DNA from: Chloroflexota bacterium
GTDB lineage: Bacteria; Chloroflexota; UBA11872; VXOZ01
Direction: 5' to 3'
Assembly (NCBI GenBank): GCA_965221905.1
Contig: OZ244922.1
Location: 672,001 to 736,000 of the forward strand
Length of the DNA: 64,000 nucleotides
The stretch's first letter is position 1; each line of letters opens with the position of its first letter. This document shows, piece after piece, positions 1-9,926 of this stretch. Under the pieces are notes generated by a model that was not told the DNA's origin, did no database searches, and saw nothing but the letters and a program-made list of their open reading frames with translations. A program made the position numbers and the translations under genes.

Positions 1-3000
1 CCTCGGCGTTCTCCGGTGTGATGCGCACTTCTTTGCGCCATTCGCCGCTTGCCAGCACGACGGTCATATCGACGTTTGAGCCCACCTCTGCGGTGAAGGA
101 CGCCAGGCCCTGGAGACTGACAACCGTATCTTGCGTCGAGTCGTAACCGCCCAGCGCATTGCGCTGTCCGACGAGCCACTTGGCCGCCTGGCCGGCATTT
201 GCCAAGTCGTCATGCGCCAACAGGGTAAGCAGCGCGTAGCCGGTTGTCTCGATAGCGGCGCTGCGGTACCCGTGCCCGCCGCCCCAATTGAGCGCGCCAT
301 TTGCATCCTCTTCAGCCATGGTCATGAGCTTGGCGTGGGCGTCTGCCGCCAGCGCGCTATCGGCAATTGCCAGCGCGTAAGCGACTATCGCCATGGTGTA
401 GGGATCTTCTATGGCCTCCAGCTTGCCTTCTAGGTACTGGATCGCGGGAAAGGCTCCGTAGAAGGCCCCAAAGCTGGGACCGGCTTCCATGAGGGCAATC
501 GCCACGTACGCCGTGAGGGCATCGCGCCCATGCAAGCCCCCAAGGAGACCTTGATTGTGGACGAAACCGACGCTCTCAAATGAACCGTCAGCCAATTGAT
601 GTCGCTCGATCCAAGCTGCGGTACGTTCTAGAACCACGGGGTCGATATAGATAATCTCCCGCGACTCGGCAAAGGTCTTGAGGACGAATGACGTAAGCCA
701 CAGGCTGCCCTCGGCGTCGCTGTCGCCGTAGGCGGAAAAACTGCCGTCACGCCGCTGGTACGTCATTTCCCGCTGATAGCCAACCAGCATGAGGTGTTCG
801 GCCTTGGCCATGATTTCGGGCTTCAGTTGATCGGTCTCCTTCAGGTACCGCGTGACGAACACGTTCGGTGCGAAGAGAACCATGTTCTGCTCGCCGCAGC
901 CGAAAGGCATTTGCAACAGCTTATCGAGGCCTTCGATGCTTTGCGTCATGAGGCTGCCCGTCAGCGCGATGTACGCGCGGCCGGAACCCGCGATGGCATC
1001 GGACGGCAGGTAGGGCAGGAATTCATGGTGGAATACACCGGTCAGCAGATGGTTGCCGACGATTTCAACCGGGATGCCCTCAGGTTCCACCTGCAGGTTC
1101 TTGATGACGGCGTCAGCCGCCTCTGTGCTGCGGGCGGTAATCTTGATGGGGTTACGGCCTAGTCCCGTGGGGCGAATCATGAACTCTACGCCGCCGATGT
1201 CATTGGCGTCAACCGTAACCGACTGCAGGGACTCGTCGAGCAGATCGAACCAATCGGCCTCCTCGATCTCGACGAAGAATTCCTGCGACGTTTCACGGTA
1301 ATTGAAGAGGGCAATCTTGACCGGCAGTTCCTCGCCGCGGATCGCGGAAACCGGCAAGTCAACGGTCAGGAAGAACGGCTGGAAGACGCGCAGTGTGCTG
1401 TCTCCCATACCCAAGCCGTGTTCCTTGGACATGCCTACGCCACGGAGCACCCACGTGGTGATACTGTCGGGGGCCGTAACCGGCAGGACGGCGCGGCCGT
1501 CTGCGTCCGTCTGGACGTCTTGCCAGATCCACGTCTCCGGGAAGAATTGGCGCACCCGCTGGACTTCCGCGAGGTTTTCTGAAGGGGCGGATTCGGCTTC
1601 TGCCATTTCCTCCTTCATCTCTGCCGCAGGCGCTTCTTCCATGGCTGGAGCGCTTGCGGCACCCCACGATTCGAACCAACTCCGCCGCCGCGGCGGCCGA
1701 TAAAGCCATCTGCCCTCCGGCACCTCCTTGTTCGTTAAGACGACCGCCCCGGCGGCAGCGAAGGTCTCGGAGGCGCCGCGCGTTTCAATCGTGTAGGAAA
1801 TATCTACGTCGTGGAGTTCAATTTGCGGCTGTTGGTAGAGCCGCTCAAGCTCATTGAAGATTTGCTGGAGATTGAGCCTGTTCTCGGCCAGAATGAATAC
1901 CGATCTGTCGACAGCCACGAGTCCGACCCGCGACTCTCCTTCTGTTTGGACGTTGACGTCAACCGGGTCTCCCGGCCTGACCTCCTCCGCGCTAAAGCCG
2001 ACCTGTACGTCGTGGGCATACGCCCCCTGGACGCTGAACGGCAGATAGTCGGCGGCGATCTCGTTATTCGGCAGAATCTGGTAGACGAGAATGCGGGATG
2101 ACGGCGCCATAAGTTCCGTTGCCGTGAAGGAAATGTCCGGGCTTGAAGCTACATCAGTAAATACCACGGCGCCTCTGGAAAGCACCTCGTAGTAGAAGTT
2201 GCGCGCTTCGCGCGTCGAATGGACGCGAAACTGCACCGCATCGCCAACAGCGATGTTGCCTTCAGTTACCTGCTCGACGTGGATGAAGTTGTCCGAAGGC
2301 GAGTGGCCCGACCGCAATACTAAGGACGTGTACGATCTACCCGCGCGCGCCTCAAGGCTCAAAGCGGCGGCAAATGCAGGCGCGGTGGCCTTTACGATGG
2401 CCTTGCCTCTTTCAGTCACAACTCGGATCGTCTCTGTTGATGCTTCCTGGAAGGCCTCGTTTAAGTAGGTGATGGTGATGGATACGTCGGTATCGACCGG
2501 CGTGCCGTCGGGAGTCTGGGCGATGATGAGGTATCCCATTGGCAAGCAGGGCTTGAGTATGCGGCTTTCCGGAATTACCTTGAGTGTTGCGGTTGCGGCC
2601 GCGACCGTGAGCAACTTCGATGTCTTCTGCTCATAGCCAGTGCTCTTCTCGCGGACGGTCACCTCGAGCGAGACGTTCCCTTGACCGCCGGACTGGGGAA
2701 TACCGGCCACGAATCGCACCGGCGGCAACTCGAAGGTAGTCTCGCCGTCAATAGGGCCGCTAAAGCGGGCATATTCCTCCCATCGGCCGACGTAGCGCGA
2801 TGCCACAATCTCGACCTCCCCCACCACCGGCTTGCCGAACGAGTATTCGCTAGCGACCGTACCGGTGATCGGTTCGTCGGCGAGCACCCAATCACGTTCG
2901 GTCGCAATACTGACCTCATACTTGGGCAGAACATACCGCTCGACGCGCACGTCAAGTTGGGTCTTCTGATCGCCCGCCAGCGCGGTGAGTTTCCACACGC

Positions 3001-3664
3001 CGAGGTTTGGCTCGACCGACAAGGGCATGTCAACAGTCACCATGCCATAGTCGTCGGTATCGACCTCTTTTCTAAAGACCTTGATGCCTTTGGCATCTTG
3101 CACTTCGATGGTCGCGGCAGAGGGCCAGGGCTTGAGTGCGGCGTCCAGAGTCATGAGACGTATGTGTACCGTCTGGCCGGGTTGGTAGATGGGCTTGTCG
3201 GTTTCAACGAAGAGGAGCAGACCGTCTACGACATCCACAAACGCTCTGCGCACTTCCGGCACATTGTCTACTCGCACTTCCACCTCGTACCGAGAGCGCT
3301 CAAGGCGCGGCACTGGGAGCATGACATTAGCCGTCCCCACCACTGTGGCGGTGATAGCTTGGACCGCAGTGCCACCGTCGAAGAGGGATACCCGCACGTT
3401 ACCGGAGGCGGGCCGGTCGCCGTTGAAGAGTGATATCGAAATCTGCTCGGTGTAGCCCCGGCGCAGCCTTTGCGGCACGACTGCGACGTAGCTGTCCGGC
3501 TTGAGGTTAAGGTCTACCACCCCGGCTTGCGGCAATATGCCGGTTGACGCGGTCTCCTGCGGGCACTTCTTATCAAGATATTTGATTACTTCCGGACCCT
3601 CGCCGCAGCTTGCTAGCGCCAGCATGAGGATTGCCATTAGGACGAAGGTCGTGAGCTTCCGCAT
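1..3664 (-). CDS. Alpha-2-macroglobulin/thioester-containing lipoprotein (3' end runs off the window)
   Basis: Not in the ORF track because it is open at the left edge. Hand translation from ATG 3664 (GGGAG upstream) gives MRKLTTFVLMAILMLALAS-C (lipobox). The same frame contains RQFFPETWIW (~1525-1553), the thioester LLQMPFGCGEQNM (~881-919) and ALTAYVAIALME. Confidence 0.93.
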   Translation of the reverse strand, partial: MRKLTTFVLMAILMLALASCGEGPEVIKYLDKKCPQETASTGILPQAGVVDLNLKPDSYVAVVPQRLRRGYTEQISISLFNGDRPASGNVRVSLFDGGTAVQAITATVVGTANVMLPVPRLERSRYEVEVRVDNVPEVRRAFVDVVDGLLLFVETDKPIYQPGQTVHIRLMTLDAALKPWPSAATIEVQDAKGIKVFRKEVDTDDYGMVTVDMPLSVEPNLGVWKLTALAGDQKTQLDVRVERYVLPKYEVSIATERDWVLADEPITGTVASEYSFGKPVVGEVEIVASRYVGRWEEYARFSGPIDGETTFELPPVRFVAGIPQSGGQGNVSLEVTVREKSTGYEQKTSKLLTVAAATATLKVIPESRILKPCLPMGYLIIAQTPDGTPVDTDVSITITYLNEAFQEASTETIRVVTERGKAIVKATAPAFAAALSLEARAGRSYTSLVLRSGHSPSDNFIHVEQVTEGNIAVGDAVQFRVHSTREARNFYYEVLSRGAVVFTDVASSPDISFTATELMAPSSRILVYQILPNNEIAADYLPFSVQGAYAHDVQVGFSAEEVRPGDPVDVNVQTEGESRVGLVAVDRSVFILAENRLNLQQIFNELERLYQQPQIELHDVDISYTIETRGASETFAAAGAVVLTNKEVPEGRWLYRPPRRRSWFESWGAASAPAMEEAPAAEMKEEMAEAESAPSENLAEVQRVRQFFPETWIWQDVQTDADGRAVLPVTAPDSITTWVLRGVGMSKEHGLGMGDSTLRVFQPFFLTVDLPVSAIRGEELPVKIALFNYRETSQEFFVEIEEADWFDLLDESLQSVTVDANDIGGVEFMIRPTGLGRNPIKITARSTEAADAVIKNLQVEPEGIPVEIVGNHLLTGVFHHEFLPYLPSDAIAGSGRAYIALTGSLMTQSIEGLDKLLQMPFGCGEQNMVLFAPNVFVTRYLKETDQLKPEIMAKAEHLMLVGYQREMTYQRRDGSFSAYGDSDAEGSLWLTSFVLKTFAESREIIYIDPVVLERTAAWIERHQLADGSFESVGFVHNQGLLGGLHGRDALTAYVAIALMEAGPSFGAFYGAFPAIQYLEGKLEAIEDPYTMAIVAYALAIADSALAADAHAKLMTMAEEDANGALNWGGGHGYRSAAIETTGYALLTLLAHDDLANAGQAAKWLVGQRNALGGYDSTQDTVVSLQGLASFTAEVGSNVDMTVVLASGEWRKEVRITPENAE

Positions 3665-3988
3665 CGCACATCTACTCCCGAAACTCGGTGTGTATCCCAC
3701 TGCCTACGGTTAGGCTGGTTTCTAGCGCCGGAGGAATGCGTTGTGAGGCGCATTGACTGGATGAAACTTCGAATGGGTTTGCCAATTGTCCCAATGGTAG
3801 CTACAACAGGACCCGTGCACAAGCTTTGCGTTGGCCGCTAGACTCTGCAACGCAAGTAATCTGTGGGAAGACTCATGTCCTTGCCTGAGTGGTCCGTGGC
3901 CGAGGCGGCCTCATCCCGTCACTCCTCCACGTCCGCTCAAGACGTTAGGGTCGCTCACAACCGGCGCCCAGGGCAGCGAAATGAGGCG

Positions 3989-7784: not shown

Positions 7785-8163
7785 ACGCTTCCCACCGGAT
7801 GACCCCAGGGAATGGCTGAACCGCGCCAAGAGCAATCTGGCAATGGCAATCAACCGAACCCCCGATGTCTATTTGGAGGACCTGTGCTTTGAGGCCCAAC
7901 AGGCGGCGGAGAAGGCTATTAAGGCCGTAATGATGATGCGCGGCATCGACTTCCCCTATGTGCATGACTTGGCTCGGCTGCTGTCTTTGCTCGAGGAAAC
8001 AGGGGAATCACTGCCGGAGATCGTTACACAGGCTGAGGAACTGACTCAATACGCTACGGCGACGCGCTATCCAACCCTCGAACAACCGGTTACCGAACGG
8101 GACTACAATGAAGCAATAAGGGTCGCCGAGGCCGTTGTTCGCTGGGCCGAGGGACTCGAATGA
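7771..8163 (+). CDS. HEPN domain protein (partner of MNT)
   Basis: CFEAQQAAEKAIKA...HDL...RYP signature, 130 aa, overlapping the MNT gene. Confidence 0.88.
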   Translation: MMPPERFPPDDPREWLNRAKSNLAMAINRTPDVYLEDLCFEAQQAAEKAIKAVMMMRGIDFPYVHDLARLLSLLEETGESLPEIVTQAEELTQYATATRYPTLEQPVTERDYNEAIRVAEAVVRWAEGLE

Positions 8164-8293
8164 CAAACTCTACAGTCTCCCCTCGGCGACTAGACTCTTG
8201 ACTGGGAATCTCGTGTGAAAACCCATATGCCGTGCAATTTGGTGATTGAGATGTGCTCTCCTTAGAGCATTGCAAATTCGTTTCCATCTTACG

Positions 8294-9616
8294 TCAGCAT
8301 TTTTCTTGGCCCAAGACCTTCATAAGCTCCCGCAACAACTGGTTGAACTGTCTCTTCAGCTCCTCCAAGTCTCGTCCCCTATGGTCCCAGCGAACATTCG
8401 CCGTGTTTATTGAGAAAGTCCACTGAGAGTCTTGGGCGTCGGCGCTACTCACAATTCGCATGACCGCTCCCTCATTCTGATTGCCCTGGAATCTCGAAAA
8501 ATAGACTAGTAACTCTGCGGAAATAGAGTGCAACTCATCTAGTTTGGTTTCGAAATCTAAGAGAGGCTGTAAGTTTTCTGAGCTGCTGCATACTTGAACT
8601 ATCTTATTCTCTCTGGTGTTTGCGTTGACACTTATCATCGTATTCACTTCACCAAAGACATCCAATAGACGATCGTTCTTGTCCATACAGTACTTGAAGA
8701 ACGGATGCAAGACGGACTCGACATACTCCTTTGCAAGAAATTCCCGATCCCTCGTGCTCATAAGAGATTGCTTGAAGAGTGCGATCTCTTTGTCGATGTC
8801 ATTGATGTCGTCGGTCAGTTCGCCACGGGCGGCCTTTAGATGAAGTTTGAGGGCATACTCACAACACTGCGCAATGTAGTTTATGAACTCAGTTAGGTCC
8901 TCAGTCTTGTCAGCCCCCTCGAGTCTGTTCAGGTACTCGTTTCGGTCGTCTTGCCGGATCAATGCCACTGTGAATCCGTGCTTGATGAGGATCATGTTCA
9001 TCAATAGGCGGGCCATGCGCCCGTTGCCATCATCGAAAGGGTGGATACGCACGAAGCTGTAGTGGAAGGTGGCGGCGATGATTATCGGGTGTTCGCCTTC
9101 ACGCTCCTTGGTTCTATACCAGGCAAGGAGGTCGGACATCGCTGGCTTTACTTGCTCAGGGGGTGTGAAGTAGTAGATCTCTCCGGTCGATGTCACGACG
9201 TTATTGGGTGTGGACTTATAGTCACCAAGTGATATCCTGCGCCTCACTCGTTTTCCGTCCGGGGTCATAGCCTCGGTTTCATAAGGTTCCTTCAGCAACA
9301 CGCTGTGGAGATTGCGGATGAAGACCCCGTTCAGCTCTAGGTCGTCTCTCACCGCAGCCTCAATCGCCTTTACCGCGTTGTCATGTCCTTCTATGTCTAA
9401 GTGGTCCCGCAATGGCTTCCCGTGAGCGGTAAGTCCGTGCAGGATGAGGCTACGGGTCTCTCCGAGCGTCAGTGAGTTGCCTTCGATGGCGTTGGAGTTA
9501 AAGTTCGCCTCGAGCCGCAGCTTCTGTTCAACCTGAGCAAGGACAGTTGGCGGCAGCGGACGCAGACTGTCCAGCTCTTCCTTCAGCTTCGTGATAGTCT
9601 CAAGGATGTTGGCCAT
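8294..9616 (-). CDS. Fic family protein (AMPylase) with N-terminal auto-inhibitory motif
   Basis: Canonical HPFDDGNGRMAR motif; SNAIEGN matches (S/T)xxxE(G/N). Likely start MANILE at 9616. Confidence 0.9.
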   Translation of the reverse strand: MANILETITKLKEELDSLRPLPPTVLAQVEQKLRLEANFNSNAIEGNSLTLGETRSLILHGLTAHGKPLRDHLDIEGHDNAVKAIEAAVRDDLELNGVFIRNLHSVLLKEPYETEAMTPDGKRVRRRISLGDYKSTPNNVVTSTGEIYYFTPPEQVKPAMSDLLAWYRTKEREGEHPIIIAATFHYSFVRIHPFDDGNGRMARLLMNMILIKHGFTVALIRQDDRNEYLNRLEGADKTEDLTEFINYIAQCCEYALKLHLKAARGELTDDINDIDKEIALFKQSLMSTRDREFLAKEYVESVLHPFFKYCMDKNDRLLDVFGEVNTMISVNANTRENKIVQVCSSSENLQPLLDFETKLDELHSISAELLVYFSRFQGNQNEGAVMRIVSSADAQDSQWTFSINTANVRWDHRGRDLEELKRQFNQLLRELMKVLGQEKC

Positions 9617-9926
9617 TTGACGTTCGATTCCCTCTTCCAAGGGTCGCGCCTGAAACTCGTGATTGCGAGCTTCTTGGAGCAGGTGTGACAACGGACTTTC
9701 AAGAAACTCTCAGTGCCTCCCAAGCCCTTGGATTCCATATCATTATAAGGCTTGATGAAGATGGTTCGCCCATTGAGACAAAGTACGGCGGCTGCCAGGG
9801 GCGGGGAGAGTTTGGGTTAAACCCTGTTGTGTTTCGCCGAATCAAGGGGCCAATTGAAGCCTTATTGACCCTAAGGATGGGTGATTAAGTACTACAATCT
9901 CTTCTTCTAACTTGCCCGTGCCAAAA

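Follow-up and report, generated by a model that had tools for sequence, protein, structure and literature searches.

Two classes of alpha-2-macroglobulin (A2M) are distinguished for Gram-negative bacteria in the papers found to treat them (PMC3328433, PMC12939704, PMC5764988), namely the YfhM/ECAM type (Type I), encoded with pbpC, and the thioester-less MagD/YfaS type. The second of these (Type II) is defined by the missing thioester and by a mag-like lipoprotein operon (PMC3328433, PMC5764988), and extra MG0/NIE domains are described for bacterial A2Ms (PMC12939704). Archaeal homologues with a CxEQ motif have also been noted, and those of Methanomicrobia are taken as bacterial imports (Makarova et al. 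2021, PMC8416519). Here we describe a macroglobulin gene at the left end of a 64,000-nucleotide stretch of Chloroflexota DNA (the window; G000:C1:672001-736000 of a genome that is a single 3,520,010-bp contig, 99.64% complete), which an initial annotation of the letters alone had read as a lipid-anchored thioester protein with animal-type motifs. From the comparisons given below, the gene product is probably a protease trap of the A2M/thioester-containing protein (TEP) superfamily, monomeric and anchored by a lipid, and carried on the outer face of the membrane of a monoderm, Dehalococcoidia-related member of the Chloroflexota. The protein is one member of a large, unstudied prokaryotic branch of the A2M family, and its gene represents a third, very large class of prokaryotic macroglobulins, with the full animal architecture and without pbpC. 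That such proteins exist is already known to the databases, where they are labelled alpha-2-macroglobulin or CD109 antigen; full-text literature searches gave no account of the Chloroflexota family, nor of any class of prokaryotic TEPs or bacterial A2Ms with animal architecture.

The gene, its domains and its predicted lipid anchor

On the minus strand an open frame extends from window position 3700 to beyond base 1. Its start codon is probably the ATG at window 3664, which has the sequence GGGAG just 5′ of it and agrees with the starts of the relatives, and the window holds the first 1221 of 1393 codons (window 1..3664). When the adjoining genome DNA was added, as the initial annotation had proposed, the whole coding sequence was recovered (L002:13486-17664, minus strand, 1393 aa); the last 172 codons, which encode the rest of CUB and then MG8, the receptor-binding domain, lie outside the window in 515 bases on the same strand (G000:C1:671486-672000, which is L002:13486-14000). 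There is no stop or frameshift over the 1393 codons, so the 3′ part is not disrupted. All of the peptide strings picked out at first reading lie in this one minus-strand frame: MRKLTTFVLMAILMLALASC (window 3664-3605), LLQMPFGCGEQNM (its GCGEQ at window 901-887), SLWLTSFVLKTF, IYIDPVVL, GSFESVGFVHNQGLLGG (its Asn1037 at window 556-554) and ALTAYVAIALME, and their reading as parts of a lipobox-bearing thioester protein is thus confirmed. The G+C content of the gene (0.596) is about that of its surroundings (0.586 for the window), which makes its composition native, and it is the sole A2M-domain gene of the genome.

The product has the features of the A2M/TEP superfamily, with a chain of macroglobulin (MG) beta-sandwich domains, a bait-region domain inserted in MG6, a helical thioester domain (TED) with CxEQ, and a C-terminal MG8/receptor-binding domain. 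All of the features located here by window position are on the minus strand. MG2 (residues 151-240; Pfam PF01835, 62.4 bits) and MG3 (residues 243-299; PF17791, 37.6 bits) together occupy window 2768..3214, the bait-region domain A2M_BRD (residues 465-592; PF07703, 101 bits) window 1889..2272 and the A2M (MG7) domain (residues 711-799; PF00207, 91.3 bits) window 1268..1534, and all four are over the Pfam cut-off. The TED (TED_complement, residues 901-1189; PF07678, 266.6 bits) lies at window 98..964, and contains the thioester motif G-C-G-E-Q (residues 922-926, with Cys923 and Gln926) at window 887..901. The receptor-binding domain (A2M_recep, MG8; residues 1297-1383; 65.6 bits in Pfam) falls beyond the window, and the protein ends 10 residues past it without a hydrophobic tail. 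These matches are far beyond chance (E 3e-79 for Pfam TED_complement and 9e-141 for CD109); the 1221 residues encoded in the window match no NCBIfam family. An AlphaFold2 model of residues 200-1393, built on a 35-row alignment (mean pLDDT 79.6, pTM 0.57), predicts residues 200-900 to be all-beta and the TED to be all-helical.

Relatives were collected with a word-indexed search, in which 7992 candidates were scored and 1229 proteins reached E <= 1e-3; the best 120 of these, which are 53-93% identical to the window protein and, where full-length, have the same Pfam set, serve below as the relatives. The signal peptide (window 3605..3664) ends in the lipobox L-A-S-C, with Cys20 as the predicted lipidated first mature residue, and this part of the initial annotation is borne out. 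All 18 relatives that were aligned have the same Cys. A strict lipobox pattern is present in 78 of the 111 full-length relatives; of the remaining 33, most can be seen by eye to have a Cys behind a run of hydrophobic residues, whereas in about seven an ordinary signal peptide precedes the motif D-x-N-D-S-G-F-I-D, and a few have a membrane helix. Between the anchor and MG1, which begins ~35 residues past the lipobox, lies a tether of low conservation (residues 21-56, window 3497..3604; conservation 0.26-0.38). We note that a Chloroflexota sub-branch (P0040-P0052, P0016 and P0077) carries the motif D-x-N-D-S-G-F-I-D-R-D-E, which looks calcium-binding or dockerin-like by eye, in place of a lipobox, and that P0016 and P0077 also carry a cadherin domain (PF00028); this suggests that the trap may be attached to the cell surface by other means as well.

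The host is a single-membrane bacterium of marine type, and its monoderm nature, which the initial annotation had assumed, is supported from two sides. The closest homologues come from metagenome-assembled genomes of Chloroflexota, Dehalococcoidia and SAR202, and Omp85/BamA is absent from the 99.64%-complete genome, although the same search was positive in 7 of 7 diderm control genomes; the absence of Omp85 marks the cell as monoderm. Genes for Lgt (201 bits) and LspA (127 bits) are present. In such a cell the lipidated Cys20 would hold the macroglobulin on the outer face of the sole membrane and, there being no outer membrane, the trap would face the environment directly.

Bait segment, thioester and proposed function

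The presumed bait comprises residues 646-700 (window 1565..1729), a charged segment rich in Ala, Glu and Pro with an RRR site, and it was placed there by conservation, by the model and by alignment. Over 110 full-length relatives the mean column conservation is 0.71 and, the tether aside, the lowest values for 30-residue windows are at residues 661-690 (0.22) and 651-680 (0.26); in the same proteins the stretch that separates the conserved anchors can be anywhere between 45 and 70 residues long. Residues 658-697 have a pLDDT of ~30 in the model and are predicted to be disordered. The segment directly precedes the MG7 stretch that aligns with human A2M from residue 728, and this is the bait location.

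The proposed mechanism would begin with Sec export and Lgt/LspA lipidation at Cys20, which would leave the protein on its ~35-residue tether. A foreign endopeptidase, whether from a competitor, a predator or a host, would then cut the exposed bait at about residues 650-697, the MG ring and the TED would rearrange, and the Cys923-Gln926 thioester would be unmasked. Attack by a lysine amine of the protease would tie it covalently to the cell-bound trap, where it would be sterically blocked, a mode of capture that corresponds to the 'snap-trap' of A2ML1 and ECAM. The features that favour this proposal are the intact 1393-residue frame, the lipobox, the order MG1-MG7, bait-region domain, CUB-TED and MG8, the invariant GCGEQNM (present in 120 of 120 relatives), the hypervariable and disordered bait, and the standalone position of the gene.

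The residue that sets thioester reactivity is less uniform. Five residues ahead of a GG pair, 116 of the 120 relatives carry His, two carry Asn (the window protein and P0010) and one carries Asp, with one further protein off-pattern. In the window protein it is Asn1037 (window 554..556), within GFVHNQGLLGG, and a HMMER alignment pairs it with the histidine in VIHSELQGG of CD109 and with the first asparagine in LLNNAIKGG of human A2M; a separate alignment has His in this column for most animal-like rows. The initial annotation had aligned this Asn with the catalytic His of complement C3, and its A2M-like character stands on the two alignments with A2M and CD109; we take the column to be that of C3 His1104, of the His of C4B, of the Asp of C4A and of the Asn of A2M. 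A His at the reactive position opens an acyl-imidazole route to hydroxyl groups, and with Asn or Asp there is direct attack by amines. Having Asn1037 rather than His, the window copy is expected to be open to direct reaction with amines in the manner of human A2M, and most relatives, with their His, could acylate hydroxyl groups also, like C3 and CD109-type proteins. The chemistry would thus be A2M-like in this copy and mostly C3/CD109-like in the family.

This variation bears on the choice between a trap and its main rival, a complement- or TEP-like covalent tagger or adhesin, in which the thioester, once activated, would fix the cell to a foreign surface (a microbe, host matrix or particle) through hydroxyl or amine groups and protease inhibition would not be the main role. 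The His of 116 of the 120 relatives, at a position that allows hydroxyl transfer in C3-type proteins, agrees with such a role, as do the membrane anchoring of CD109, the nearest solved relative, and an LRR_8+fn3 surface protein encoded 199 nt upstream in three related loci. The window protein, however, has the Asn of the A2M state, so that tagging fits the His majority better than it fits this copy; moreover, a long, hypervariable and disordered bait is the mark of protease-triggered traps, and no gene for a convertase-like protease or a receptor is linked. We therefore regard tagging or adhesion as rather unlikely to be the main function of the window protein.

Some points nevertheless weigh against the protease trap that we favour. 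That a thioester forms, that the bait is cut and that proteases are captured is deduced throughout from homology, and over the family as a whole the His majority fits complement- or TEP-like tagging at least equally well. The gene is also dispensable: its distribution is patchy, with a match at E <= 1e-30 in 3 of the 10 other genomes of the same genus, in 24 of the 401 Chloroflexota genomes that were sampled and in 18 of 323 when high-quality genomes are counted, and in two genomes of the genus only a relic of ~200 bp is left. If the proteins are active, they would serve as models of CD109/A2ML1-type traps that are small, contain few disulfides and can be expressed in bacteria. Their natural variants with His, Asn or Asp would then form a series for the study of thioester chemistry, and the proteins would give a handle on the origin of animal thioester immunity.

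Relation to bacterial and animal macroglobulins

The window protein and the Type I proteins YfhM/ECAM of E. coli and SaA2M of Salmonella (5a42, 4ziq, 4u48) are alike in being bacterial lipoproteins from one superfamily, each having a bait and a CxEQ thioester, and both are presumed to be protease traps that protect the envelope. A lipoprotein signal is common to the two (LASC here, MLALAGC in YfhM), although YfhM acts in the periplasm of a diderm and the Chloroflexota macroglobulin would lie on a monoderm surface. The comparison drawn by the initial annotation holds on the YfhM side: YfhM of E. coli K-12 has 1653 aa and the motif PYGCLEQT, its gene is head-to-tail with pbpC, and its domain matches are bMG1, A2M_bMG2, bMG3, bMG5, bMG6, bMG10 and CUB_A2MG, with only 33 bits to TED_complement. 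The differences on the side of YfhM are CLEQ, the extra N-terminal bMG1/bMG2, bMG10 and the pbpC operon. The window protein has no Pfam match to bMG1, bMG2, bMG3, bMG5 or bMG6, and its bMG10 score (20.6 bits) is below the cut-off of 26.2; BLASTP aligns the two proteins only locally, with scores of 43 and 38 bits. The annotation is supported in reading the architecture as that found in animals rather than that of YfhM.

Nor is there a pbpC partner. The gene downstream encodes a GNAT acetyltransferase, BiPBP_C, the domain specific to PbpC, is absent from the whole genome (the same search was positive in E. coli, Caulobacter and Bacteroides), and a tblastn search with E. coli PbpC found no similar sequence within 6 kb in any of 80 related loci. 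These 80 are the best of 401 stretches encoding a relative, out of 474 that matched the search patterns with one genome taken per species, and they serve for all neighbourhood counts given here; nearly all are from Chloroflexota, Dehalococcoidia or SAR202, two being labelled only 'bacterium'. Type II proteins such as YfaS/MagD differ in having no thioester and in their mag-like lipoprotein operon; the Chloroflexota macroglobulin has the thioester motif, and no multi-gene operon of that kind surrounds it, its neighbours being the GNAT gene, a gene for a 197-aa protein without a Pfam match, and permease genes.

Among solved structures the best sequence matches are human CD109 (474 bits), A2M (437 bits) and A2ML1 (401 bits), with E-values from 9e-141 (CD109) to 1e-119 across the three, followed by frog A2M (309), TEP1 (305), C4 (304), C3 (267) and C5 (204); no bacterial A2M is among the matches listed, which are the best 60 of 85. 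The TED by itself scores 195 bits against the CD109 TED (HMMER). In Foldseek the predicted fold is closest to native CD109 (8s3o, E 1.4e-83 over 1238 columns), then to A2ML1, activated CD109, A2M and TEP1, and the A2Ms of Salmonella and E. coli appear at ranks 45-50 with 13-14% identity. CD109 (8s3o, 9fx2/9fx3) and A2ML1 (7q1y), which are thus prominent both in sequence and among fold ranks 1-5 (27-29% identity in Foldseek), have the same colinear architecture of ~1400 aa with a GCGEQNM thioester, and as a membrane-tethered protein and a monomeric trap, respectively, they follow the same logic as the Chloroflexota macroglobulin. The differences are that the anchor is an N-terminal lipobox here and a C-terminal glycosylphosphatidylinositol (GPI) signal in CD109, that Asn1037 stands where CD109 has His, and that the protein has only four Cys and hence, unlike CD109 and A2ML1, no disulfide framework. 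Human A2M (6tav, 7von) shares the bait region, the thioester and the Asn at the reactive position; it differs in its disulfides, in not being a prokaryotic lipoprotein and in the tree, where the window protein lies outside the A2M clade, and we saw no evidence that the Chloroflexota protein forms the tetramer of human A2M. The complement hallmarks ANATO and NTR/C345C, found in C3, C4 and C5, are not among the Pfam matches at E <= 0.001.

An exhaustive search with residues 200-1393 returned 11,772 representatives at E <= 1e-3, of which 2,795 were at E <= 1e-30, and five groups can be told apart among the best 150 of the 11,772. These are the Chloroflexota clade, a group of prokaryotic proteins with GCGEQNM, a small group with a lipobox, a large one with 'GCFEQT' and an animal-like group; complement C3, C4 and C5 rank below these 150. 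The prokaryotic GCGEQNM group includes Methanosarcinales (Methanolobus, Methanococcoides and ANME-2), Altiarchaeales, Planctomycetota (among them Anaerobaca lacustris), Acidobacteriota and Omnitrophota. The proteins of Methanosarcinales, Planctomycetota, Acidobacteriota and Omnitrophota have the same Pfam set and GCGEQNM, are ~1400-1900 aa long and 36-44% identical to the window protein, and differ from it in forming separate clades and, in many cases, in having laminin-G/LamG-like, cadherin or dockerin additions. In every prokaryotic group that was tested, the domains present are TED_complement and A2M_recep and not the bMG set. The animal-like group is anchored by proteins that match solved structures, namely P0216 (CD109, 1150 bits), P0160 (CD109/TEP, 836), P0167 (mosquito TEP1, 754) and P0195 (A2M, 868), and the window protein is ~30-35% identical to its representatives; the median number of Cys is 13 in this group and 2-5 in the others. 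Four basal rows of the animal-like group (P0184, P0187, P0158 and P0171) have GPI-like tails, and were called eukaryotic from these tails and their Cys content alone.

Within the 'GCFEQT' group, three macroglobulins of 1600-2000 aa (P0257, P0262 and P0243, among nine proteins tested) have an N-terminal zf-HC2 anti-sigma-factor zinc finger, two over the cut-off (37.9 and 45.8 bits) and one just under it (20.2 bits), and in P0262 the A2M domain is also preceded by a T2SSG pseudopilin domain. Such a fusion of a thioester macroglobulin with an anti-sigma factor could be a protease-sensing signal switch.

Trees were built from the part that runs from MG7 to the C-terminus. For FastTree we used 120 of 151 rows plus YfhM (121 in all), having dropped rows shorter than 1250 aa and four proteins (P0145, P0176, P0228 and P0239) in which the thioester motif is duplicated or aberrant; for IQ-TREE (LG+C20+F+G4) we used 69 rows that span all groups, with 707 columns, aligned with MAFFT on a C-terminal cut of 725 residues. 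The animal-like group has 100% support in both trees and the Chloroflexota clade 99% in FastTree and 96% in IQ-TREE, the latter also joining the Chloroflexota with the other prokaryotic groups at 87%. In both trees the Chloroflexota clade is outside the clan of animal A2M, CD109 and insect TEPs. The root is not resolved, since the YfhM branch is 10 changes per column long, and the FastTree root is not trustworthy. The tree envisaged by the initial annotation thus places the clade outside both the YfhM type and the group resembling animal CD109, A2M and TEP1; it was built without C3, C4 or C5 sequences and does not cover placement relative to complement. The window protein is neither of YfhM type nor nested among animal CD109, A2M or insect-type TEPs, and of the outcomes named in advance as contrary to the annotation, namely nesting in the YfhM type, a pbpC partner and a broken 3′ end, none was found.

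The label 'animal-type' is, however, a misnomer, since the motif and domain set are common to thousands of prokaryotic proteins, including those of cultured archaea and Planctomycetota. Of the initial interpretation, what survives is an intact lipobox-bearing thioester protein of a monoderm without a pbpC partner, and what does not is that label together with the suggestion of a mimic of host immunity recently taken from an animal. Under that suggestion a symbiont would blunt host proteases or imitate CD109 or A2M with a gene obtained by recent horizontal transfer, and it finds some encouragement in the label 'CD109 antigen' (JGI) of the best database matches, in human CD109 and A2M as the best solved matches, and in a few LRR_8 and ankyrin-repeat open reading frames (ORFs) in the genome. 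It is very improbable, given the low identity to the animal-like representatives, the exclusion of the Chloroflexota clade from the animal-like clan in both trees, the same architecture in Methanosarcinales, Altiarchaeales, Planctomycetota, Acidobacteriota and Omnitrophota, a G+C content equal to the surroundings, and four Cys where the animal-like median is 13. The protein also departs from the animal clades in the marks of a eukaryotic signal peptide, many disulfide Cys and, for CD109, a GPI signal.

Descent in the other direction deserves mention as a tentative idea. In the trees the animal group forms one clan and all of the deep branches that adjoin it are prokaryotic. The Chloroflexota, archaeal, planctomycetal and acidobacterial clades might represent the prokaryotic stock from which animal A2M, CD109 and insect TEPs arose, with a His/Asn/Asp variation inside the Chloroflexota clade that would parallel the C4A/C4B and A2M/C3 switches, although we consider this somewhat doubtful. 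If true, it would reverse an older proposal, according to which bacteria reportedly took A2M from metazoans, and the variation (116/2/1 of 120) would mean that microbes tune the target of a surface thioester.

Distribution, loss and neighbouring genes

The macroglobulin gene is an accessory one, probably for surface defence, that is gained and lost within the genus. At the window locus it lies between a xanthine/uracil-type permease gene and a SulP gene that are 6.1 kb apart, the SulP permease being upstream. In five genomes of the same genus that have no macroglobulin both flanking genes persist, 1.2, 2.2, 4.3, 7.5 and 11 kb apart, and in two of these a relic of ~200 bp remains between the same two permease genes: in G188 it corresponds to TED-coding residues 1112-1210 (E 6e-16, L087:4151-4353) and in G310 to residues 1119-1211 (E 8e-9, L088:7632-7816). 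No relic was found in the other three at E <= 1. Relics at the syntenic site indicate that the gene was formerly present in the genus and has been deleted repeatedly, although the two relics retain the same segment and may stem from one deletion. These losses, with relics in two of five genomes and the flanking permeases kept in all five, are also what would be seen if the window copy were a decaying, functionless leftover. This is the least probable of the explanations considered, as the frame has no stop or frameshift over its 1393 codons and Cys20, GCGEQNM and the TED and MG8 motifs are all kept.

Across the 80 related loci there is no widely conserved neighbour family, GNAT being a neighbour in four and SulP in five. 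The GNAT gene (181 aa) overlaps the macroglobulin gene by start and stop in the sequence ATGA (L002:13483-13486), and in the four closest relatives that keep it, it begins ~10-600 nt further downstream of the end of the matched gene. It was considered as a partner and rejected, since it occurs in only 4 of 80 loci, survives where the macroglobulin has been deleted and is duplicated in G270. The most frequent cluster of flanking ORFs, apparently present in 13 of 80 loci, proved on inspection to be a mix of leucine-rich-repeat (LRR) proteins and macroglobulin fragments, and the count was not used.

The LRR_8+fn3 protein mentioned above has 1282 aa and an LRR_8 score of 569 bits (L009:1954-5799, plus strand; also in L010 and L051), and is encoded on the same strand as the macroglobulin; two of its three loci lie on one contig, which has two macroglobulin copies. 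In the genome of the window, large LRR_8 ORFs occur at C1:52-54 kb, 389-393 kb and 1953 kb, and there are three ankyrin-repeat ORFs, none of them near the macroglobulin gene. A Fic/DOC-domain protein of 465 aa is encoded at window 8297-9691 (minus strand), where the G+C content falls to 0.49 (window 8001-9000) from ~0.60 around it, and this stretch may be a small acquired island. Homologues of the Fic/DOC protein are encoded upstream of the macroglobulin locus in the close relatives L005 and L007.

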